From a virus (lineage: Duplodnaviria > Heunggongvirae > Uroviricota > Caudoviricetes), in the IMG/VR virus record IMGVR_UViG_2529292911_000007: a stretch of 49,111 bases of DNA; one strand, given 5' to 3'. A program made the position numbers and the translations under genes. Of this stretch, positions 9,102 through 43,922 are shown piece after piece (position 1 is the first letter of the stretch; every line of letters starts with the position of its first letter). A model generated the notes under the pieces. The model saw nothing but the letters and a program-made list of their open reading frames with translations. It was not told the DNA's origin and did not search any database.

Positions 9102-10031
9102 ATGGCAAACACTGCTGAGATATTCAATTTTCCAGTGCCGGATGTGGCACAAAAGGAGCCGCGCGTGGCAGATCTCGACGATGGTTATACGCGCATTGCA
9201 AATGAGTTGCTGGAAGCTGTGATGCTGGCCGGATTAACACAGCACCAGCTTCTGGTCTTCCTGGCTGTCATGCGCAAAACATATGGCTTTAATAAAAGAC
9301 TGGATTGGGTGAGCAACGAGCAACTTTCCGAATTGACCGGGATATTGCCGCACAAGTGTTCTGCTGCAAAAAGCGTTCTGGTAAAGCGTGGGATTCTTAT
9401 TCAGAGCGGGCGGAATATCGGCATTAATAATGTGGTCAGTGAATGGTCAACATTACCCGAATCAGGTAAGAAAAATAAAGTTTACCTGAAAGAGGTAAAT
9501 TTACCTGAATCAGGTAAGAAAAGTTTACCCAAATCAGGTAAAGGCGTTTACCCGAATCAGGTAAACACAAAAGACAAACTAACAAAAGACAATATAAAAC
9601 CTTTTTCGTCCGAGAATTATGGCGAATCCTCTGACCAGCCAGAAAATGCCCTTCCTGTGGTGAAACCGGATGCTGCAATTCAGAGCGGCAGCAAGTGGGG
9701 GACAGCAGAAGACCTGACCGCCGCAGAGTGGATGTTTGACATGGTGAAGACCATCGCGCCATCAGCCAGAAAACCGAATTTTGCAGGGTGGGCTAACGAT
9801 ATCCGCCTGATGCGTGAACGTGACGGACGTAACCACCGCGACATGTGTGTACTGTTCCGCTGGGCATGCCAGGACAACTTCTGGTCCGGTAACGTGCTGA
9901 GTCCGGCCAAACTCCGCGACAAGTGGACCCAGCTCGAAATCAACCGAAACAAGCAACAGGCTGGCGTGACAGCCGGCAAACCAAAACTCGACCTGACAAA
10001 CACAGACTGGATTTACGGGGTGGATCTATGA
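9102..10031 (+). CDS. O: Replication initiator O (lambda O family)
   Basis: ATG 9102 with GGGAGG RBS; N-terminal region resembles lambda O (VADLDDGY...RKTYG.NK); ori iterons lie inside the gene as in lambda. Confidence 0.8.
   Translation: MANTAEIFNFPVPDVAQKEPRVADLDDGYTRIANELLEAVMLAGLTQHQLLVFLAVMRKTYGFNKRLDWVSNEQLSELTGILPHKCSAAKSVLVKRGILIQSGRNIGINNVVSEWSTLPESGKKNKVYLKEVNLPESGKKSLPKSGKGVYPNQVNTKDKLTKDNIKPFSSENYGESSDQPENALPVVKPDAAIQSGSKWGTAEDLTAAEWMFDMVKTIAPSARKPNFAGWANDIRLMRERDGRNHRDMCVLFRWACQDNFWSGNVLSPAKLRDKWTQLEINRNKQQAGVTAGKPKLDLTNTDWIYGVDL
9453..9600. repeat. Origin of replication: five about 18-bp iterons (TTTACCYRAATCAGGTAA) plus A/T-rich tract
   Basis: Direct repeats at 9453, 9481, 9500, 9524 and 9547 followed by an A-rich segment (acaaaagacaaactaacaaaagacaatataaaac); lambda ori architecture. 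Confidence 0.75.
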
Positions 10032-10741
10032 AAAACATCGCCGCACAGATGATTAACTTTGACCGTGAGCAGATGCGCCGGATCGCCAACAACATGCCGG
10101 AACAGTACGACGAAAAGCCGCAGGTACAGCAGGTAGCGCAGATCATCAACGGTGTATTCAGCCAGTTGCTGGCAACTTTCCCTGCGAGCCTGGCTAACCG
10201 TGACCAGAACGAACTGAACGAAATTCGCCGCCAGTGGGTTCTGGCTTTCCGGGAAAACGGGATCACCACAATGGAACAGGTTAACGCTGGAATGCGCGTA
10301 GCCCGTCGGCAGAATCGACCATTCCTGCCGTCGCCCGGCCAGTTCGTAGCGTGGTGTAAGCAGAGTGGCGGGGCGTTAGGTATCACTGTTGACCAAGTCA
10401 TAACCGAATACTGGGATTGGCGTAATCGTTCCTTCGAATTCACTTCCAGCGAGCATTTCCCGTGGTCACAGCCTGTCATGTACCACATCTGCGTCGAACT
10501 GCGCCACCGCAGCACAGAGCGCCAGTTAACGCATGGTGAGCTGGCGCGTGAAGCCGGCGATCTGCTGGACATGTGGGAGAGGCGCGTCACCGAGGGCAAA
10601 CCAGTACCGCCTGTGCGCCGGGCGATTGCAGCACCGGCTGCCGAGCATGGCCCGACGCCAATCCAGCTGCTTCAGGCGAAGTACAACCGCAACAAGTCGA
10701 ACGGGATGGTGCGAAGTGGTAAAGAAGATAATAAAGAATAA
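10028..10741 (+). CDS. P: Replication protein P (DnaB helicase loader)
   Basis: MKNIAAQMINFDREQMRRIANNMPEQYDEKPQVQQVAQIINGVFSQLLATFPASLANRDQNE... matches lambda P N-terminal two-thirds from memory; ATGA overlap with the O stop. Confidence 0.85.
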   Translation: MKNIAAQMINFDREQMRRIANNMPEQYDEKPQVQQVAQIINGVFSQLLATFPASLANRDQNELNEIRRQWVLAFRENGITTMEQVNAGMRVARRQNRPFLPSPGQFVAWCKQSGGALGITVDQVITEYWDWRNRSFEFTSSEHFPWSQPVMYHICVELRHRSTERQLTHGELAREAGDLLDMWERRVTEGKPVPPVRRAIAAPAAEHGPTPIQLLQAKYNRNKSNGMVRSGKEDNKE

Positions 10742-10819
10742 TATTTAGGGTTATAGGTCTTAGCCCATTTTAAATGGAAGGCAGACATGCAGCCATGCAT
10801 ACTTCGCATGGCAACATAA

Positions 10820-11248
10820 TTATTTAGACAAACTATCTAATTTTTGCGTCGCTTTTTGTGTTAGGTCGCTGTAACTGATAAACCCTACGTTAGCACCTAC
10901 AATTAACACTAAGAACACTAAGCTGCATATGGATAGAGTGGCAGATTTATGCTTATGGAAAACAAAATATGCTACTATTGCACTTAATATGAAGGAAATG
11001 AATAGAAATATAGATGTTGATGTTTTTAGATATTTTTCAGGAAATAATGGGTGAGCAATAATGTATACAAGATTAAGTAGTATATAAATTGCTACCGGAA
11101 TGAAAATCATGCTCCAGTGTGTATCTTTTTTGGGAGGGATTGGCTGCAAATAATCAGACACCGTTTTTCCATCAGTTTCAAGAAGAATTACTAGATCTCT
11201 TACTTCACCACTGACTTGAGTGCCATCCTTAGTAGTAATGTTAATCAT
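10820..11248 (-). CDS. Small membrane protein with three predicted TM helices (unknown function), distal gene of an AT-rich two-gene module
   Basis: About 45-aa soluble N-terminus followed by three hydrophobic segments (IFIPVAIYILLNLVYIIAHPLF, IFLFISFILSAIVAYFVF, LSICSLVFLVLIVGANVGFI); ATG 11248 overlaps the upstream stop (ATGA); alternative start at 11305. Confidence 0.45.
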   Translation of the reverse strand: MINITTKDGTQVSGEVRDLVILLETDGKTVSDYLQPIPPKKDTHWSMIFIPVAIYILLNLVYIIAHPLFPEKYLKTSTSIFLFISFILSAIVAYFVFHKHKSATLSICSLVFLVLIVGANVGFISYSDLTQKATQKLDSLSK

Positions 11249-11622
11249 TTTTTCCCTCCAAATACGATGCCCTCTACGTCTTTGGAAGCTTTTTGTGATG
11301 ACCACTCCTCTGAATCAGGTGATTTAATTAAAAATATTGTATCTCCATCAAAAATCGTATTTGTTCCGTAAAAATTTACATTTGATAGATCACCACCAAA
11401 AACCCTCTGCCCACTCGAGGTAATTGCCTCACCTAATTTAGTAAAATTACCTGCAATAGATGATTTTCTTTTTCCACTTCTATTCAAAGTGGCTTTAATT
11501 ACACCACCACCATCCTTAGAGTTAAATAATTGAATGTCCACTCCAGCAGTTGGTTGTATATATTTTGAAAGCTCTTTCTTGAACTTGTTAATATATTTAT
11601 CTTTGTTTTCTTTGTTGGTCAT
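11245..11622 (-). CDS. Hypothetical soluble Lys/Gly-rich protein (unknown function), proximal gene of an AT-rich two-gene module
   Basis: 125-aa ORF, AT-rich, antisense to the flanking phage operons; no domain recognised. Confidence 0.45.
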   Translation of the reverse strand: MTNKENKDKYINKFKKELSKYIQPTAGVDIQLFNSKDGGGVIKATLNRSGKRKSSIAGNFTKLGEAITSSGQRVFGGDLSNVNFYGTNTIFDGDTIFLIKSPDSEEWSSQKASKDVEGIVFGGKK

Positions 11623-11794
11623 TGGTTAGATCCATAGTTCTGGCTGTGATTAGGTGAAAGTATACAAGGTTTTTAAAGCGAAGATCACTGTTTTGGCTTC
11701 AAGATAGTTTTGATTTATCGTAATCAATCCGCCATAATCCTCTCATCGGAGCCTGAACAACTCCGGTGACTTCTGCGCATTTAAGGGGACTTAA

Positions 11795-11890
11795 ATGCGA
11801 CCACAATCTGAACTCATCACCTTGTCACAGATGCAGAAATGCACCTGCGATTTTCTGCATTCTGCGGTTTCCGTTAGGGAGGCCGTATGA
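11795..11890 (+). CDS. Small ORF (31 aa) translationally coupled to ybcN; ylcH-like position
   Basis: ATG 11795 with AAGGGGA RBS; stop overlaps the ybcN ATG (gtATGA). Confidence 0.3.
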   Translation: MRPQSELITLSQMQKCTCDFLHSAVSVREAV

Positions 11891-12342
11891 CTCTGCCAGT
11901 AGACGGCATCAAACTCCATCGCGGTAACTTCGCGGCCATCGGCCAGCAGATTCAGCCATTGCTGGATGCCGGGCAATGCTTACGCCTGCAGGTTAAGCCG
12001 TGGCGCGAGAAGCGCAGCCTGTCGCAGAACGCGCTCAGCCACATGTGGTACACGGAGATCAGCGAATATCTCATCGCCCGCGGCAAGACCTTCGCTACGC
12101 CTGAGTGGGTCAAAGACGCGATGAAGCACACCTATCTCGGCTACGAAAGCAAAGACCGTGTAGATGTCGTGTCCGGCGAGGTCACCACCGTCCAATCCCT
12201 CCGCCATACGTCAGAGCTGGAAACCGGCGAGATGTACATCTTCCTGTGCAAAGTCGAAGCCTGGGCGATGAATATCGGCTGCCACCTGACAATTCCGCAG
12301 AGCTGTGAATACCAGCAGCTGCGCGATAAGCAGGAGGCGTAA
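11887..12342 (+). CDS. ybcN: YbcN-like nin-region protein (DLP12 YbcN family)
   Basis: 151 aa MTLPVDGIKLHRGNFAAIGQQ...; size and sequence match DLP12 YbcN as I recall it. Confidence 0.65.
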   Translation: MTLPVDGIKLHRGNFAAIGQQIQPLLDAGQCLRLQVKPWREKRSLSQNALSHMWYTEISEYLIARGKTFATPEWVKDAMKHTYLGYESKDRVDVVSGEVTTVQSLRHTSELETGEMYIFLCKVEAWAMNIGCHLTIPQSCEYQQLRDKQEA

Positions 12343-12513
12343 TGGCTACACCGCTTATTCGTGTCATGAACGGGCACATCTACAGAGTATCAAATCGTCG
12401 TAAGCGTAAGCCTGAGCTGAAGCCATCCGAAATACCAACACTGCTCGGATATACCGCTAGCCTGGTTGATAAAAAATGGTTGCGACTGGCAGCAAGGAGG
12501 AATCATGGCTGAT
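12343..12513 (+). CDS. ninE: NinE-like protein
   Basis: 56-aa ORF ([56 protein letters not shown]) after an AGGAGG RBS; basic, ends like lambda NinE (W.RLA.R). Below the ORF-track length cutoff. Confidence 0.55.
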
Positions 12514-12795
12514 TTGAGAAAAGCAGCGCGTGGTCGGGAATGCCAGGTAAGAATCCCTGGCGTATGTAATGGCAATCCTGAAACGTCAGTACTGGCACAT
12601 ATCCGGCTGGCTGGATTGTGCGGTACCGGTATCAAACCGCCAGACCTGATTGCCACCATTGCATGTTCTGCCTGTCACGACGAAATCGACCGCCGCACAT
12701 ATTTTGTCGATGCTGAGTATGCAAAAGAATGCGCGCTGGAAGGTATGGCGAGAACGCAGGTTATCTGGCTGAAAGAGGGGGTTATTAAGGCGTGA
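12505..12795 (+). CDS. ybcO: YbcO-like protein (DUF1364-like, Cys-rich)
   Basis: 96 aa from ATG 12505 (AGGAGG RBS); cysteine motifs [11 protein letters not shown]...CSACHDE. Confidence 0.6.
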
Positions 12796-13154
12796 ATACC
12801 TACAGCATCACATTACCCTGGCCTCCGAGCAATAACCGCTATTACCGCCATAATCGCGGGCGCACACACATCAGCGCAGAAGGGCAGGCATACCGCGATA
12901 ACGTCACCCGAATCATTAAAAACGCAATGCTGGATATCGGCCTGGCTATGCCAGTGAAAATCCGTATTGAGTGCCACATGCCGGATCGCCGTCGCCGTGA
13001 CCTGGATAATCTGCAAAAAGCCGCTTTTGACGCACTCACCAAAGCAGGTTTCTGGCTGGATGATGCTCAGGTCGTTGATTACCGCGTTGTGAAGATGCCT
13101 GTTACCAAAGGTGGGAGGCTGGAACTGACCATCACCGAAATGGGGAATGAATGA
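12792..13154 (+). CDS. rusA: RusA Holliday-junction resolvase
   Basis: 120 aa; matches the RusA family ([16 protein letters not shown]...[17 protein letters not shown]). Confidence 0.85.
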
Positions 13155-13291
13155 TGTTTGAGTTTTATATGGCAGAACTTCTTCGCCACCGCTGGGGGCA
13201 TCTGCGCTTATATCGTTTCCCCGGTTCTGTTTTGACCGATTACCGAATACTGAAGAATTACGCCAAAACCCTGACAGGAGCAGGAGTATGA
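13151..13291 (+). CDS. ylcG: Small protein, YlcG-like
   Basis: 46-aa ORF overlapping the rusA stop; DLP12-like gene order. Confidence 0.35.
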
Positions 13292-13376
13292 AGTCAGAGA
13301 TAACAATCAACTAATACTGTTTTGTTGATTTTTGCTTGTAATTGGCGTTCTGGTCTGATTTTTGTGGAGTAAGTTG

Positions 13377-13760
13377 ATGCGTGATATTCAGATGGTTCTT
13401 GAGCGTTGGGGAGCGTGGGCGGCTAATAATCATGAAGATGTGACCTGGTCGTCCATTGCCGCCGGTTTTAAGGGATTAATTACTTCAAAAGTAAAATCTC
13501 GCCCGCAATGTTGTGACGATGACGCGATGATTATTTGCGGGTGCATGGCCCGTCTGAAAAAGAACAACAGCGATTTGCACGATTTATTAGTAGATTATTA
13601 TGTAGTCGGTATGACATTCATGTCACTGGCAGGTAAGCATTGCTGCTCTGATGGTTATATCGGGAAAAGGTTACAGAAGGCTGAGGGCATAATTGAAGGG
13701 ATGTTAATGGCATTAGATATCCGGTTAGAGATGGATATCGTTGTTAATAACTCTAATTAA
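13377..13760 (+). CDS. Late-gene antiterminator Q (DLP12 QuuD-like)
   Basis: 127 aa from ATG 13377 (GGAG RBS); sits between the nin genes and the lysis cassette; Cys-rich putative zinc-binding region. Confidence 0.6.
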
Positions 13761-13948
13761 TATGCCAATTGTTTACTAAAAATTATTAAAAATGGGGCGT
13801 TGCAACGCCCCCAAAAATAAAGGGTAATATATAACAGAAGGTTTATATAGTTAGAAGCAAGGTTGTGCTCCTAAAGGAAGTGGCTTGAGGGAGCCACTTA
13901 TATGTTGGGGAGGCAAAGCCTCCCGCAACATATCTTTTAGTAATCAAA

Positions 13949-15031
13949 TTAGAACTGGTAAACCATACCTACAGCAACGATATCATCGGTAGCAACGCCA
14001 GATGCTTTCGTGAAATCGCTCTTATCAATCAGGTTGATTTTGTAATCAACAAAAGTGGACATATTTTTGTTGAAGTAATAGGTTGCACCTACATCAATAT
14101 ATTCAACCAGGTCCTGATCACCCCACGCACCCAAGTCTTTTCCTTTAGATTGCAGGTAAGCAACGGACGGACGCAGACCGAAGTCGAACTGATATTGTGC
14201 AACTACTTCGAAGTTTTGTGCTTTGTTGGCAATATGGTTATTACCAAAAACAGTCATGTTCTGGGTTTCAGAATAGGTGGTAGCCAGATAGATGTTGTTC
14301 GCATCATATTTCAGACCAGCTGCCCATACTTCAGCATTTTGACCAGATGCATTCAGGCTGTTGTTACCGTAGATAACCTGATTATTAGTGCGGTCAGATT
14401 TAGCATAGGTTGCACCTACACCGAATCCTTCATACTCATAAGTAGTGGAGAAACCGAAACCATCACCATTAGCTTCAGTTACGTCAGTGCGGTCATTTTT
14501 ACCCTGATACTGAGCAGCAAAGTTCAGACCATCAACCAGACCAAAGAAGTCGTTGTTACGATAAGTTGCAACACCAGTGGTGCGACCAGTCATGAACACA
14601 TCTGTTTGGGTCCAGGTATCGCCACCGAATTCTGGCAGAACGTCAGTCCACGCACCGATGTCATATGCTACACCGTAGTTACGGCCGTAATCGATTGAGC
14701 CGTAGTCCCCGAATTTCAGGCCTGCAAATGCAAGACGGGTTTTGTCTTTGGAGGAGCCTTGAGATTCAGCGCGGTTGCCTTTGAATTCATATTCCCACTG
14801 ACCGAAACCAGTCAGTTGATCGTTGATTTGGGTTTCACCTTTGAAGCCAAGACGGGCATAAGTAGTATCACCATCATCTGCATCATTAGAGGAGAAGTAG
14901 TGCTTGGCATTAACTTTCCCATATAGATCCAGCTTGTTACTGTCTTTATTATAAATTTCAGCTGCCTGAGCAGACATCGCCATCAGTACTGATGCAGCTA
15001 CAGCAGAAATTGCCACTGTTAATTTTTTCAT
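13949..15031 (-). CDS. nmpC: Outer-membrane general porin (NmpC/OmpD-like)
   Basis: 360 aa with signal peptide ([23 protein letters not shown]) and C-terminal beta-barrel signature ending in F; OmpC/OmpF-family motifs; sits between Q and the holin as in DLP12. Confidence 0.85.
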
Positions 15032-15458
15032 CGTGAGCCCTTTTTTTTGAACTATTATTAAAAAATGATGTCACTGCGCGATAAATATTCATCTAATCAA
15101 TGTGATTATTTCAAGATGTAAGTTTTGGTTTCTCGTTTGATTTGTGAAGTAGATCTCTATTTTTATCTGAACTTTTTTCTATCGAATCCTATTCATGGCT
15201 CTTGGCTGAATAAAAATAAATCTATTAGCCAATTTATATTAACGGCTGTTATTTATAAGTGCTCTGTAATTTGAAGGTTCAATTTAAATCGGCTAAAAAT
15301 AACGCTGGAAATTATTTGCTGGTTATTTGTTGAGATTTGCTTATGTATTTGTAGTGGTGTTTTCAATACTCGGTAGCATTCTCGCAAATATCATTTTGTG
15401 GTTTACGTACGTAAAAAATTGGTTATGCTGTTAAGAGTGGTTACTTCGTCACACAGCT

Positions 15459-15492
15459 TAAACCCGCCGTCGAGCGGGTTTTTCCATTTTTT
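15459..15492 (+). terminator. Rho-independent terminator upstream of the holin (candidate tR')
   Basis: Stem AACCCGC-cgtcga-GCGGGTT followed by TTTCCATTTTTT. Confidence 0.45.
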
Positions 15493-15604
15493 GAGTCTCG
15501 ATATTAGCTGATAACCCAATACCTGAGTTATTCACTGACTCCGAGTCTGTTACGTTTCGTAGTATTCCCTCAATTTACACCCGCTTTGTCTGCGAGGTGG
15601 GGTT

Positions 15605-15820
15605 ATGAAATCCATGGATAAGTTAACAACGGGTGTCGCCTATGGCACCTCAGCAGGTAGTGCCGGTTACTGGTTTTTACAGCTGCTCGATAAAGTCACG
15701 CCCTCACAGTGGGCAGCAATAGGTGTGCTGGGTAGCCTGGTATTTGGCCTGCTGACGTACCTGACAAACCTTTATTTCAAGATTAAAGAAGATAAGCGCA
15801 AGGCTGCGAGAGGTGAATAA
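15605..15820 (+). CDS. essD: Holin (class II, DLP12 EssD-like) with dual-start motif MKSM
   Basis: 71 aa with two hydrophobic segments and a charged C-terminus; ATG overlaps the lysozyme start (TAATG). Confidence 0.8.
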
Positions 15821-16164
15821 TGCCTCCATCATTACGAAAAGCCGTTGCTGCTGCTATTGGTGGCGGAGCAATTGCTATAGCATCAGTGTTAATCACTGGC
15901 CCAAGTGGTAACGATGGTCTGGAAGGTGTCAGCTACATACCATACAAAGATATTGTTGGTGTATGGACTGTATGTCACGGGCATACAGGAAAAGACATCA
16001 TGCTCGGTAAAACGTATACCAAAGCAGAATGCAAAGCACTCTTGAATAAAGACCTTGCCACTGTCGCCAGACAAATTAACCCGTACATCGAAGTCGATAT
16101 ACCGGAAACAACGCGCGGCGCTCTTTACTCATTCGTTTACAACGTGGGTGCTGGCAATTTAGAC
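15820..16164 (+). pseudogene. rrrD: Phage lysozyme (RrrD-like), 5' fragment interrupted by IS2
   Basis: [27 protein letters not shown]... lysozyme N-terminus; the reading frame runs into the IS2 left end at 16160. Confidence 0.8.
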
Positions 16165-16250
16165 TGGCCCCCTGAATCTCCAGACAACCAATATCACTTA
16201 TTTAAGTGATAGTCTTAATACTAGTTTTTAGACTAGTCATTGGAGAGCAG

Positions 16251-16616
16251 ATGATTGATGTCTTAGGACCGGAGAAACGCAGACGGCGTACTACACAGGA
16301 AAAGATCGCTATTGTTCAGCAGAGTTTTGAACCGGGAATGACAGTCTCCCTTGTTGCCCGGCAACACGGTGTGGCAGCCAGCCAGTTATTTCTCTGGCGC
16401 AAGCAATACCAGGAGGGAAGTCTTACTGCTGTGGCCGCAGGAGAACAGGTCGTTCCTGCCTCTGAACTTGCTGCCGCCATGAAGCAGATTAAAGAACTCC
16501 AGCGCCTGCTCGGCAAAAAAACGATGGAAAATGAACTCCTTAAAGAAGCCGTTGAATATGGGCGTGCAAAAAAGTGGATAGCGCACGCGCCCTTATTGCC
16601 CGGGGATGGGGAGTAA
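16251..16616 (+). CDS. insC: IS2 transposase OrfA (InsC)
   Basis: [56 protein letters not shown]... matches IS2 InsC from memory. Confidence 0.9.
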
Positions 16617-16814
16617 GCTTAGTCAGCCGTTGTCTCCGGGTGTCGCGTGCGCAGTTGCACGTCATTCTCAGACGAACCGATGACTGGAAAGATGGTCGCC
16701 GCAGCCGTCACTCAGATGATACGGATGTGCTTCTCCGTATACACCATGTTATCGGAGAGCTGAACCGCCCCGGAAATCCTGGAGACTAAACTCCCTGAGA
16801 AAGAGGTAAACAGG

Positions 16815-17141
16815 ATGACTAAAAATACTCGTTTTTCCCCCGAAGTCCGTCAGCGGGCGATTCGTATGGTTCTGGAAAGTCAGGATGAATATGACTCACA
16901 GTGGGCGGCAATTTGTTCCATTGCCCCAAAGATTGGCTGTACGCCGGAGACTCTGCGTGTCTGGGTTCGCCAGCATGAGCGGGATACCGGGGGCGGTGAT
17001 GGTGGGCTCACCAGCGCTGAACGTCAGCGTCTGAAAGAGCTGGAACGTGAAAATCGTGAACTGCGCCGCAGTAACGATATCCTTCGCCAGGCTTCCGCTT
17101 ATTTTGCGAAGGCGGAGTTCGACCGCCTCTGGAAAAAATGA
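16815..17141 (+). CDS. IS3-family transposase OrfA (HTH)
   Basis: 108 aa [22 protein letters not shown]... with a leucine-zipper-like C-terminus. Confidence 0.85.
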
Positions 17142-18028
17142 TGCCACTGCTGGATAAGCTGCGTGAGCAGTACGGGGTCGGACCGGTATGCAGCGAACTG
17201 CATATTGCCCCGTCAACGTATTACCATTGTCAGCAACAGCGACATCATCCGGATAAACGCAGTGCCCGTGCGCAGCACGATGACTGGCTGAAGAGAGAGA
17301 TACAGCGCGTATACGATGAAAATCATCAGGTGTACGGTGTGCGTAAAGTCTGGCGTCAGTTGTTACGGGAAGGAATCAGGGTGGCCAGATGTACAGTGGC
17401 GCGCCTCATGGCGGTTATGGGACTTGCCGGTGTTCTCCGGGGTAAAAAGGTCCGTACGACCATCAGCCGGAAAGCCGTTGCCGCAGGCGACCGCGTAAAC
17501 CGTCAGTTCGTGGCAGAACGACCTGACCAGCTGTGGGTGGCTGATTTTACTTACGTCAGCACATGGCGGGGCTTCGTCTATGTGGCGTTCATCATTGATG
17601 TGTTTGCCGGATACATCGTGGGGTGGCGGGTCTCATCGTCTATGGAAACGACATTCGTGCTGGATGCGCTGGAGCAGGCGTTGTGGGCCCGTCGTCCGTC
17701 TGGCACCATCCATCACAGCGATAAAGGCTCTCAGTATGTGTCACTGGCCTATACGGAGCGACTAAAAGAAGCCGGATTACTGGCATCAACAGGGAGTACA
17801 GGCGACTCGTATGACAACGCGATGGCTGAGAGCATCAATGGTCTTTACAAAGCGGAGGTAATACACCGTAAGAGCTGGAAAAACCGTGCAGAAGTGGAAC
17901 TGGCCACACTAACGTGGGTGGACTGGTATAACAATCGACGATTGCTGGGAAGGCTGGGCCATACTCCTCCGGCAGAAGCAGAAAAAGCTTATTATGCTTC
18001 CATCGGAAACAATGATCTGGCAGCTTGA
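17138..18028 (+). CDS. IS3-family transposase OrfB (DDE integrase core)
   Basis: 296 aa with a DDE-type catalytic region (WVADFTYV...HHSDKGSQY...DNAMAES); overlaps orfA in the -1 frame. Confidence 0.85.
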
Positions 18029-18803
18029 GTTCACAGATAAAACACTCTCCAGGAAACCCGGGGCGGTTCAAGCTGCCCACATATGGTTATCGTCGGGTAT
18101 GGGCGCTGCTTCGCAGACAGGCCGAACTTGATGGTATGCCTGCGATCAATGCCAAACGTATTTACCGGATCATGCGCCAGAATGCGCTGTTGCTTGAGCG
18201 AAAACCCGCTGTACCGCCATCGAAACGGGCACATACCGGCAGAGTGGCTGTGAAAGAAAGTAATCAGCGATGGTGCTCTGACGGGTTCGAGTTCCGCTGT
18301 GATAACGGAGAAAAACTGCGAGTCACGTTCGCGCTGGACTGCTGTGACCGTGAGGCACTGCACTGGGCGGTCACTACGGGCGGCTTCAACAGTGAAACAG
18401 TACAGGACGTCATGCTGGGAGCGGTGGAACGCCGTTTCGGCAACGAGCTTCCGGCGTCTCCAGTAGAGTGGCTGACGGATAATGGTTCATGCTACCGGGC
18501 TAATGAAACACGGCAGTTTGCCCGGATGTTGGGGCTTGAACCGAAGAACACGGCGGTGCGGAGTCCGGAGAGTAACGGCATAGCAGAGAGCTTCGTGAAA
18601 ACGATAAAGCGTGACTACATCAGTGTCATGCCCAAACCAGACGGGTTAACGGCAGCAAAGAACCTTGCAGAGGCATTCGAGCATTATAACGAATGGCATC
18701 CGCATAGTGCACTGGGTTATCGCTCGCCACGGGAATATCTACGGCAGCAAGCCAGTAATGGGTTAAGTGATAACAGGTGTCTGGAAATATAGGGGCAAAT
18801 CCA

Positions 18804-18966
18804 CAATTTCAGAACATCGACGCTTCTTCGCAAAATAAACCAGGGCGATATCAAAGGCGCATGTGATCAGCTACGTCGCTGGACATATGCTGGCGGTAAG
18901 CAATGGAAAGGTCTCATGACTCGTCGTGAGATTGAGCGTGAAATCTGTTTGTGGGGTCAGCAATGA
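18804..18966 (+). pseudogene. rrrD: Phage lysozyme (RrrD-like), 3' fragment downstream of IS2
   Basis: In-frame continuation ...[51 protein letters not shown] immediately after the IS2 right end and target duplication. Confidence 0.8.
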
Positions 18967-19424
18967 ACAGAGTAACCGCGATTATCTCCGCTCTGGTTAT
19001 CTGCATCATCGTCTGCCTGTCATGGGCTGTTAATCATTACCGTGATAACGCCATTACCTACAAAGCCCAGCGCGACAAAAATGCCAGAGAACTGAAGCTG
19101 GCGAACGCGGCAATTACTGACATGCAGATGCGCCAGCGTGATGTTGCTGCACTGGATGAAAAATACACGAAGGAGTTAGCTAATGCGAAAGCTGAAAATG
19201 ATGCTCTGCGTGATGATGTTGCCGCTGGTCGTCGTCGGTTGCACATCAAAGCAGTCTGTCAGTCAGTGCGTGAAGCCACCACCGCCTCCGGCGTGGATAA
19301 TGCAGCCTCCCCCCGACTGGCAGACACCGCTGAACAGGATTGTTTCACCCTCAGAGAGAGGCTGATCACTATGCAAAAACAACTGGAAGGAACCCAGAAG
19401 TATATTAATGAGCAGTGCAGATAG
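18963..19424 (+). CDS. rzpD: Rz-like spanin (inner-membrane subunit)
   Basis: 153 aa from ATG 18963 overlapping the lysozyme stop; N-terminal TM segment then coiled-coil-like region. Confidence 0.7.
19183..19365 (+). CDS. rzoD: Rz1-like spanin (outer-membrane lipoprotein), embedded in the Rz +1 frame
   Basis: 60 aa with lipobox (LVVVGC) and a proline-rich tract, nested inside Rz. Confidence 0.6.
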
Positions 19425-19455
19425 AGCTGCCCATATCGATGGGCAACTCATGCAA

Positions 19456-19749
19456 TTATTGTGAGCAATACACACGCGCTTCCAGCGGAGTATAAATGCC
19501 TAAAGTAATAAAACCGAGCAATCCATTTACGAATGTTTGCTGGGTTTCTGTTTTAACAACATTTTCTGCGCCGCCACAAATTTTGGCTGCATCAACAGTT
19601 TTCTCCTGTCCAATTCCCGAAACGAAGAAGTGATGGGTGATGGTTTCCTTTGGTGTTACTGCTGTCGGTTTGTTTCCAACAGTAAACGTCTGTTGAGCAC
19701 ATCCTGTAATAAGCATTGCCAGAGCGGCAGAAAACAACATTTTTTTCAT
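19456..19749 (-). CDS. bor: Bor lipoprotein (serum-resistance family)
   Basis: 97 aa MKKMLFSAALAMLITGCAQQTFTV... with lipobox; matches lambda/DLP12 Bor. Confidence 0.8.
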   Translation of the reverse strand: MKKMLFSAALAMLITGCAQQTFTVGNKPTAVTPKETITHHFFVSGIGQEKTVDAAKICGGAENVVKTETQQTFVNGLLGFITLGIYTPLEARVYCSQ

Positions 19750-20111
19750 CTTATTATCCTGCATTGTTAAAAACGGCAGAATCCTATGTGACAACAATTA
19801 AACGATAGTTAAATGGATTGATGAAAATTAAAACTATATAGGTGTACGCTCAGACTATTGGAGGAAGTTGGGGACACTCAGAATCCTGTGGAATGAAATA
19901 AACCGGTCTATCCGTCTATTACCCTTTTAGCTGCGCTGTATCGTCGCCGTATTCCCGCATTAACCATGACCGTAGCCCGACGGGGAATTCCTTCTGCGTG
20001 AGTGTGCGGGAATAATCAAAAACGATGCACACCGGGTTTTACTGTGCTGACAGACGCAGGGTTACCCTCATAGTCGCTTTTCCGGTGCGATGGTGGAAGA
20101 AACCGGGATGT

Positions 20112-20306
20112 TCATCCATCATCACTTTGGATTGATGTATATGCTCTCTTTTCTGACGTTAGTCTCCGACGGCAGGCTTCAATGACCCAGGCTGAGAAAT
20201 TCCCAGACCCTTTTTGCTCAAGAGCGATGTTAATTTGTTCAATCATTTGGTTAGGAAAGCGGATGTTGCGGGTTGTTGTTCTGCGGGTTCTGTTCTTCGT
20301 TGACAT
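20112..20306 (-). CDS. Small ribbon-helix-helix-like protein (YlcI/DUF3950-like)
   Basis: 64-aa ORF between bor and cos. Confidence 0.35.
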   Translation of the reverse strand: MSTKNRTRRTTTRNIRFPNQMIEQINIALEQKGSGNFSAWVIEACRRRLTSEKRAYTSIQSDDG

Positions 20307-43618: not shown

Positions 43619-43922
43619 CCCAGCAACTCCTAAATAGCTGCGCATAATACCGCTACACCTGCCGTTTTACTGACATTTGGAATATTGCGTGAGGGCAACA
43701 TATCGAGGGGCAGATACAGCTCGGTCAAATAGAAAAACAGCCCCACTATTTACCATGCAATAGCTGGTCAAAAGGAGAGCACTATTCCGCTCCGCGTAGT
43801 ATTTTGTGTTTATAGTGATAACTTAGGTAATGCTTAGTCACTAAGATACTTTGCTATTGGAGAGCGATTTATAATGTGGGCGCAACAGATTTTTACTATT
43901 GCGCCACTTGCTCTTGTGAGTA

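Follow-up and report, generated by a model that had tools for sequence, protein, structure and literature searches.

Two successive transpositions, of IS2 and then of an IS629/IS1203-type element, into the endolysin gene of a phage-21-like prophage at icd

Introduction

In a tailed-phage sequence from IMG/VR (record IMGVR_UViG_2529292911_000007), the endolysin gene of an otherwise complete-looking prophage is occupied by mobile DNA, which raises the question of how and in what order this gene was broken and whether its loss marks an old, domesticated prophage or a recent accident. A first-pass annotation, made from the letters of the sequence, had claimed that the endolysin frame is interrupted at about codon 113 by IS2 with a 5-bp CAATT duplication, that insD of this IS2 is split by a 1310-bp IS3-family element with a 3-bp AGC duplication, and that the prophage is cryptic or domesticated and retained for its cargo. 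Here we examine these claims against reference elements and public genomes, using "the window" for the whole stretch of 49,111 nucleotides analysed.

Results

The endolysin gene and its restored product

Excision of both insertion sequences together with one copy of each flanking duplication yields a 165-aa endolysin that agrees with RrrD of K-12 (PDB 4ZPU) at 163 of 165 residues, matches the P21 endolysin (3HDE) with E~1e-110 and aligns to the Phage_lysozyme domain PF00959 over positions 3-125 of 125 (E=2.8e-45). Its N-terminal 90 residues are identical to 4ZPU in the alignment, and this includes the weakly hydrophobic, Gly/Ala-rich signal-anchor-release (SAR) segment at residues 8-27. The residues E35, D44 and T50, read from the sequence, form the E-X8-D-X5-T motif, which is the canonical lysozyme triad (PMC9239132). 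In length, SAR N-terminus and triad, the restored protein is thus like R21 of phage 21 and RrrD of the K-12 prophage DLP12 (PDB 3HDE, 3HDF, 4ZPU).

In the window, the gene starts with an ATG at 15820 and its frame is broken after nt 340, that is, after codon 113 and one base, much as had been claimed; native sequence resumes at 18809, past the insert and a CAATT copy, and the stop codon ends at 18966 (Table 1). As judged from its sequence, rrrD is no longer an intact, functional SAR-endolysin gene for pinholin-dependent lysis, being split and having a predicted product that ends after 113 native residues. This 129-aa product aligns to positions 3-83 of 125 of the Pfam lysozyme domain only; it was indexed in 47 blocks of a public-assembly collection, from which 24 contigs carrying it were read. 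RefSeq relatives annotate the two parts of rrrD as pseudogenes, the 5' part as "missing C-terminus" and the 3' part as "missing N-terminus".

The cassette order S21-R21-Rz/Rz1-bor is shared with phage 21 and DLP12, and an OmpC-like porin gene lies upstream, as in DLP12. In contrast to DLP12, rrrD is present here in two fragments, the prophage occupies icd and not the DLP12 site, and it is of full length and not a remnant. A promoter and terminator scan of 13700-19500 gave hits at a frequency not above that in shuffled sequence. A hairpin followed by a T-run lies at 15460-15481, upstream of S, and is a candidate tR'.

Table 1. Features of the interrupted lysis cassette (positions in the window)
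Feature	Position	Strand	Description
essD / S21-type pinholin gene	15605..15820	+	71 aa, intact, immediately 5' of endolysin gene; Pfam PF04971 "Bacteriophage P21 holin S", E=2e-35; annotated essD in relatives
rrrD 5' fragment (R21-type SAR endolysin)	15820..16159	+	codons 1-113 plus one base; SAR anchor and E35-X8-D44-X5-T50 triad
Truncated rrrD ORF as now encoded	15820..16209	+	129 aa, 113 RrrD residues plus 16 from IS2 left end
IS2 left part	16160..16760	+	IRL, intact insC, A6G run, first 62 insD codons; AGC 16758-16760 is left IS629 target copy
IS629/IS1203-type element, complete	16761..18070	+	exactly 1310 bp; same orientation as IS2 and rrrD
orfA	16815-17141	+	108 aa
ALIL pseudoknot (frameshift-stimulating RNA)	17096..17212	+	at orfA/orfB overlap; Rfam RF01497, 121.5 bits against gathering score of 50, full length 1-117
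orfB	17138-18028	+	296 aa
IS2 right part	18071..18803	+	right AGC copy 18071-18073, 3' part of insD (stop ends 18792), IRR ending ...GGGGCAAATCCA
rrrD 3' fragment	18804..18966	+	right CAATT copy 18804-18808, then codons 114-165 and stop
Rz i-spanin gene (rzpD)	18963..19424	+	intact, 3' of insertion; Pfam PF03245, E=1.9e-52
Rz1 o-spanin gene	19183-19365	+	embedded in rzpD, intact; PF06085, E=4.9e-19

A variant IS2 in rrrD

The IS2 copy, a member of the IS2 group of the IS3 family, spans 16160-18803; it is 2644 bp long as it stands and 1331 bp once the nested element and one AGC are taken out. It is flanked by the direct repeat CAATT at 16155-16159 and 18804-18808, as had been claimed, and the same five bases occur once in the uninterrupted rrrD of strain ETEC1747. 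Alignment of the junctions to reference ends gave a match to the termini of the annotated IS2A of K-12 MG1655, with identity over 41 nt at the left end and 26 nt at the right end. IS2A and the reconstructed copy have in common the length of 1331 bp, the termini, the insC/insD arrangement with its A6G slippery run and the 5-bp duplication; the present copy differs in belonging to a variant clade, with 1273 of 1331 bases identical (95.6%, 58 substitutions), and in being disabled by the nested insertion. By convention, isoforms share about 95% nucleotide identity, and the present IS2 lies just above this value. The variant clade is also found in strains PKF8, ET490 and FACU2024.

Intact insC (16251-16616, 121 aa) encodes a protein that scores 276 bits with the NCBIfam model "IS2 repressor TnpA", against a cut-off of 229. 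The slippery run lies at 16568-16574 and insD begins at 16574; the reconstructed insD frame is open to its stop and is interrupted in the window itself. The InsCD transposase would therefore no longer be made by this copy; both ends are kept, so it should be mobile only with the help of other IS2 copies.

A complete IS629/IS1203-type element in insD

The second element was inserted after nt 601 of IS2, which is codon 63 of insD, and its predicted length of 1310 bp proved exact. AGC flanks it at 16758-16760 and 18071-18073 and is single in the uninterrupted IS2 of strain CV839-06, in agreement with the claimed 3-bp duplication. Its terminal inverted repeats are imperfect, starting with TGAACCGCCCCGG, with 22 of 25 positions alike at the two ends; a full-length copy in E. 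coli O157:H7 strain Z1835, which has its own 3-bp duplication, shows identical termini. With this copy as a proxy for the Shigella sonnei type sequence, the element was assigned to IS629 on the basis of 99.47% identity over 1310 bp (7 differences); copies in porcine ETEC genomes are 99.9% identical. In the literature, the abundant element of O157:H7 goes by the name IS629, with IS1203v described as similar, and NCBI PGAP labels elements of this type "IS1203 family".

IS629/IS1203 of O157:H7, of the IS3 group within the IS3 family, likewise has a length of 1310 bp, an orfA of 108 aa, an orfB of 296 aa, the ALIL pseudoknot and a 3-bp duplication. The two open reading frames stand in a -1 frame relation, and the transposase is recognised by NCBIfam as IS3-family (315 bits) and by Pfam as carrying rve (E=1.6e-27) and HTH_21. 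Given that the ends, orfA, orfB and the frameshift pseudoknot are all intact, this copy is probably still active. Taken together, nothing contradicts the structural account, and its coordinates, lengths and repeats are confirmed as correct to the base.

Predicted effect on lysis

A lysis defect of the prophage is likely, as predicted from established lysis biology and the sequence of the window. The 129-aa fragment keeps the SAR domain and the catalytic triad and lacks the last third of the lysozyme fold, so that muramidase activity is expected to be abolished. Upon induction, killing by the pinholin should still take place, but the murein would stay undegraded and virions would be unable to escape, save where a second endolysin encoded elsewhere in the genome steps in. 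Downstream, the same late transcription unit continues into Rz/Rz1 and into the packaging and morphogenesis genes, which should still be expressed if Q-modified polymerase crosses the 2.6-kb insert.

The insertion might instead be silent for lysis, either by virtue of a truncated SAR-lysozyme that is active enough, in line with its retention of the SAR domain and all three catalytic residues, or through complementation by the endolysin of another prophage. One E. coli genome often holds several rrrD-like copies, in up to 6 places, and in E. coli O157 Sakai, prophages that are defective still leave the cell as particles and are transferred, which the authors of that study credit to inter-prophage interactions (PMC2669165). 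We nevertheless regard a silent insertion as unlikely, since the truncation removes 52 of the 165 residues and 42 of the 125 positions of the Pfam domain, and a compact single-domain lysozyme that has lost a third of its fold would normally neither fold nor be active; complementation, for its part, requires co-induction of another prophage.

The background of the prophage

Across all 49 kb, the window is 99.97% identical to the prophage of ETEC1731, and the differences are single bases or changes in homopolymer length, none of which frameshifts a structural gene. The ETEC1731 record has the integrase, excisionase, repressor region, replication genes, Q, terminase, portal, capsid, tail and tail-fibre genes annotated as intact. 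The prophage resembles phage 21 and resides at icd according to the annotation of relatives; no tRNA gene was found in the window by ARAGORN, and the ALIL pseudoknot was the sole hit of an Rfam gathering scan of the whole window, so that the attachment site is not a tRNA gene.

These observations bear on the suggestion that the prophage is cryptic or domesticated, with lysis lost long ago and the host keeping the cargo. Cargo genes are indeed present, namely the OmpC-like porin (13949-15031), Bor/Iss (19456-19749, Pfam) and Lom, and domestication has been argued for the homologous lysis module of DLP12 in K-12 (PMC7918800). The suggestion is not supported, however: the remaining phage modules are annotated as intact in the near-identical ETEC1731 prophage, an essentially identical prophage with an intact rrrD exists in ETEC1747, and neither long-term decay nor selection on the cargo is apparent. 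We therefore hold domestication to be improbable. IS2 is identical between strains and its flanks show 0-1 differences, so the insertion is recent; on these sequence comparisons, the IS2 event is a very recent first hit on a complete-looking prophage and not the signature of long domestication.

Similar damage is known from the prophage pool of O157 Sakai, in which insertion sequences likewise inactivate single essential genes of well-conserved lambdoid prophages, such as nu1 of Sp4 (PMC2669165). In contrast to the present case, all lambdoid prophages of Sakai keep the full set of lysis genes (PMC2669165), whereas here a lysis gene was hit and the insertion sequence was itself hit by a second one.

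Order of the two insertions

All three stages of the locus were seen in public genomes. The empty site is represented by ETEC1747, with rrrD intact and 1 mismatch in the 1177-bp lysis cassette; the IS2-only stage, at the same site, by CV839-06, ETEC1731 and the draft assemblies GCA_000249735.2 and GCA_000225245.2; and the nested stage by GCA_000249695.2, the one assembly in which it was found and which is 100% identical to 11820-20209 of the window. The IS2 of CV839-06 equals the reconstructed IS2 at 1331 of 1331 bases. The existence of the three stages argues that IS2 came first and the IS629-type element second, both recently, and the single CAATT of ETEC1747 and single AGC of CV839-06 show that the flanking duplications are not chance repeats. 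We thus conclude, with a probability of about 0.9, that two successive recent transpositions struck the lysis cassette of a phage-21-like prophage, complete in other respects, at icd in E. coli of the porcine ETEC type. First, the variant 1331-bp IS2 entered rrrD, duplicating CAATT and breaking the frame at codon 113; then, the 1310-bp IS629/IS1203-type element entered insD of that IS2 and duplicated AGC. The polarity of the second step is given by parsimony and mechanism, insertion being assumed over precise excision in the relatives.

The reverse polarity would make the nested state ancestral, with IS2-only strains arising through precise excision of IS629, for instance by an IS-excision enhancer, and precise transposase-dependent excision of IS629 has been documented (bioRxiv 10.1101/2023.06.07.543989; PMC9330008). 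It would require the exact loss of the element and one AGC in separate strains (from China, Belgium and the drafts) or in their common ancestor, yet the nested state is known from one assembly only and no iee gene lies within the window, which makes this polarity very improbable.

Even less credible is the idea that IS2 transposase brought in the 2644-bp IS2::IS629 composite ready-made from another copy. Such a composite retains both IS2 ends, and E. coli genomes commonly carry an IS629-type element within IS2, many of them giving 2644-bp matches. We rejected a circulating composite on the grounds that four other nested cases have the element at IS2 positions of about 742, 974, 1114 and 1237, as opposed to 601, and that the junction is unshared: a junction-specific search found it in 0 of 5426 complete E. 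coli genomes, with two records of >=80% coverage being split matches. The IS2-only stage at the same CAATT in four public genomes or assemblies, one with the very IS2 reconstructed here, speaks against it as well. The one orientation shared by the top nested examples is an effect of the search, which joins same-strand pieces only, and carries no conclusion.

Finally, insertion sequences are a classic source of misassembly and the nested state comes from a single assembly, but a repeat collapse or chimera that placed them into rrrD can be dismissed as exceedingly improbable, given perfect 5-bp and 3-bp duplications, the exact restoration of both host sequences upon removal and the independent occurrence of the IS2 stage in two complete and two draft assemblies.

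A recurrent IS2 target in endolysin genes

In endolysin genes of the R21/RrrD type, IS2 has struck the CAATT at nt 336-340 in at least three independent cases. These are the variant-type IS2 in the icd prophage of the window and two IS2 copies of the K-12 type, one in a Rac-region prophage of strain PK8566 and one, oppositely oriented, in strain 400660. Nearby positions in rrrD or Rz hold at least four further IS2 copies. It is tentatively possible, if still rather doubtful, that CAATT and roughly 240 bp downstream into Rz constitute a true hot spot of IS2, or else that selection for lysis-defective prophages repeatedly favours insertions there. A literature search on IS2 target preference returned nothing specific; classical work on phage P1 reportedly dealt with IS2 hot spots.

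Implications

The disruption of rrrD is ordinary prophage damage, already recorded in public genome annotations. For annotation, rrrD is best given as a pseudogene, the IS2 copy as predicted not to be self-mobile and the IS629-type copy as probably active. The clean series of empty site, IS2 and IS2::IS629 places both events in the recent past of one porcine E. coli lineage, and domestication should not be deduced from a single IS in a lysis gene. Beyond such book-keeping the locus has little importance, with the recurrent IS2 target as the only point worth following up: the repeated, independent use of one target in the endolysin genes of different prophages may reflect a preference of IS2 or selection against prophage-induced lysis. 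If this were true, the precise excision known for the IS3 family would mean that such insertions could serve as reversible off-switches for prophage lysis.

Structure of the interrupted endolysin gene

Direct reading of positions 15300-19500, together with exact-match location of the IS termini, confirmed the arrangement proposed in the first-pass annotation, namely an endolysin gene interrupted by IS2 that is itself split by a 1310-bp element. The coordinates, lengths, duplications (CAATT and AGC) and interruption at about codon 113 given there were all correct; the structure is real and is built of well-known elements. The outer element begins TAGACTGGCCCCC and terminates ...GGGGCAAATCCA, the inner element begins TGAACCGCCCCGG and terminates ...CCGGGGCGGTTCA, and rrrD, IS2 and IS629 all share one orientation. 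In silico removal of the inner element with one AGC leaves an outer element of 1331 bp, and removal of the latter with one CAATT as well yields a 498-nt open frame of 165 aa.

Features of the window and of related loci from other E. coli genomes
Feature	Position	Remark
N6-adenine methyltransferase ORF	window 2405-2962 (-)	185 aa; T-run at 2835
OmpC-family porin gene	window 13949-15031 (-)	360 aa
GC-rich hairpin	window 15460-15490 (+)	hairpin with T-run, 15460-15481
Endolysin ORF (rrrD)	window 15820-16159	in frame from start to 16159
CAATT copies	window 16155-16159, 18804-18808	flank IS2
IS2	window 16160-18803	
A6G run	window 16568-16574 (ETEC1731 one A shorter at 16568-16573)	
AGC copies	window 16758-16760, 18071-18073	flank IS629
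IS629/IS1203-type element	window 16761-18070	exactly 1310 bp
Apparent leftovers of another element	window about 43900-49111	past tail-fibre gene, at icd
AAA ATPase and McrC restriction pair	window 46047-49111	
IS2 at CAATT, PK8566	L010 3556-3560	orientation as in window
IS2 at CAATT, strain 400660	L011 3556-3560	opposite orientation
Further IS2 loci	L012 about 2126; L013 2114-3444; L014 2274-3604; L015 2297-3627	
Two further IS2 in rrrD	nt about 395, about 406	
Two further IS2 in Rz	about nt 553, about nt 572 of R-Rz string	duplications CTGTC, CACGG
IS629/IS1203 type within IS2 (L004-L007)	IS2 about 1114 (PEC422), 1237 (AJ5), 974 (NZRM4169), 742 (pEP91B-3)	

The restored protein matches E. coli K-12 RrrD (PDB 4ZPU) at 163 of 165 residues and the phage P21 endolysin (3HDE) with an E value of about 1e-110, and fully covers the Pfam Phage_lysozyme domain. 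It has an N-terminal Gly/Ala-rich segment and E35-X8-D44-X5-T50, E-X8-D-X5-T being the canonical lysozyme triad motif of SAR endolysins (PMC9239132). An S21-type pinholin gene lies upstream of rrrD, and Rz, the embedded Rz1 and bor/iss lie downstream. The hairpin precedes the pinholin gene by about 115 bp, in the place expected of the late-operon terminator tR', which is read through by Q-modified polymerase, and is a candidate tR'.

The outer element has 95.6% identity to IS2A as annotated in MG1655, with which it shares the first 41 nt and the last 26 nt; its InsC passes the cut-off of the NCBIfam model "IS2 repressor TnpA", and the A6G slippery run is present. Both ends are kept and the transposase frame is lost after insD codon 62, and this copy could move only with transposase supplied by another IS2. 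The inner element encodes orfA (108 aa) and orfB (296 aa, with the rve core), contains a full-length Rfam ALIL frameshift pseudoknot (121.5 bits) and looks fully functional. E. coli O157:H7 strain Z1835 has a copy, with a 3-bp duplication of its own, to which the inner element is 99.47% identical across 1310 bp. Such copies are named "IS1203 family" by PGAP, the NCBI annotation pipeline; in the literature, IS1203v is similar to IS629, and the abundant O157:H7 element is named IS629.

Order of the insertions

Searching 5426 complete E. coli genomes with the flanks returned three very close relatives. In ETEC1747, rrrD is uninterrupted with one CAATT, and a single base out of 1177 sets the lysis cassette apart from that of the window. 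CV839-06 carries IS2 alone at the same site, identical at 1331/1331 bases to the IS2 reconstructed from the window and therefore with only one AGC. In ETEC1731 the site likewise holds IS2 alone, in a copy (L003/L009) of 1330 bp whose A6G run is one A shorter; were the missing A real, insC and insD would be joined in frame, a homopolymer error being more likely. A look-up of the truncated 129-aa product among public assemblies brought in two IS2-only drafts (GCA_000249735.2 and GCA_000225245.2) and GCA_000249695.2, in which contig AIGA01000034.1 matches window 11820-20209 at 100% identity, nested element included; the window presumably comes from this last assembly. The IS2/IS629 junction of the window was absent from the 5426 complete genomes.

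The simplest history suggested by these comparisons runs from empty site to IS2 to IS2::IS629. The reverse polarity, precise excision of IS629 from the nested state, is mechanistically possible and less parsimonious. Arrival of IS2::IS629 as one unit is rejected in view of the IS2-only intermediates and of the differing nested positions in other genomes. Both stepwise insertions are recent and belong to one lineage found mostly in pigs, and both stages are already on record, the first in RefSeq, where rrrD is annotated as a split pseudogene, the second within a public assembly.

IS629/IS1203-type elements inside IS2 recur on other E. coli chromosomes and plasmids; since they occupy differing IS2 positions, nesting of this pair appears to be common and to have arisen independently. 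In CV839-06 (NZ_CP025753.1 4012122-4029059, against window 1-16159), the prophage left arm has about 779 extra bases, a size that fits another small IS.

Repeated use of the site by IS2

The same rrrD CAATT holds IS2 in another prophage type, in the Rac region adjoining trkG, in the unrelated strains PK8566 and 400660. These copies are K-12-type IS2 and differ from the window IS2 at 57-59 positions, so that at least three of the insertions at exactly this CAATT are independent. More IS2 copies lie up to about 240 bp downstream in other genomes, in both orientations, and an uninterrupted copy of the rrrD site occurs in 3832 of the 5426 complete genomes. The pattern suggests a local IS2 target preference (a regional hot spot), selection for lysis-defective prophages, or both. 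IS2 target choice has long been known to be non-random, so the recurrent site is only a modest point.

State of the prophage and consequences for lysis

With the 1313-bp nested insert set aside, the whole window aligns to the ETEC1731 chromosome at 99.97% identity, and the ETEC1731 record has a lambdoid prophage adjoining icd. Annotated as intact there are integrase, excisionase, recombination genes, immunity region, replication genes, quuD (Q), OmpC-like porin, lysis cassette (its rrrD interrupted by IS2), terminase, portal, capsid, tail, J, lom and tail fibre. The differences between the window and this relative are few, single bases or homopolymer lengths, and break no structural gene; the prophage therefore shows no visible decay, rrrD being the only essential phage gene seen broken.

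The intact porin gene, above the NCBIfam porin OmpC cut-off, is on the opposite strand, in the interval that separates the Q antiterminator gene from the lysis cassette, a position held by nmpC in K-12 DLP12. The methyltransferase ORF is intact here and annotated as frameshifted in ETEC1731; the two differ by one base in the T-run, probably a sequencing error in one record. By comparison with ETEC1731, the apparent leftovers at icd comprise a truncated tail-fibre-assembly gene, an acyltransferase pseudogene (a 288-aa ORF here), a recombinase fragment and the restriction pair.

SAR endolysins are exported and stay tethered in the membrane until its depolarisation by the pinholin frees them (PMC9239132). 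The current rrrD product, 113 native residues plus 16 read out of IS2, spans just positions 3-83 of a lysozyme profile 125 positions long and, lacking the C-terminal third of the fold, would be expected to be inactive. From established lysis biology, the pinholin should still kill the induced cell, with neither murein breakdown nor virion release. Rz/Rz1, nu1 and downstream genes would need late transcripts across 2.6 kb of IS DNA, which Q-modified polymerase is expected to cross. Another prophage may complement the endolysin loss. Release of defective prophages is known from O157 (PMC2669165). Since the prophage is otherwise intact and an almost identical one keeps an intact rrrD, there is no support for the proposal of the first-pass annotation that the prophage is cryptic or domesticated and retained for its cargo. 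Loss of rrrD is an early stage in the inactivation of a prophage, of an ordinary kind, and not evidence of domestication.
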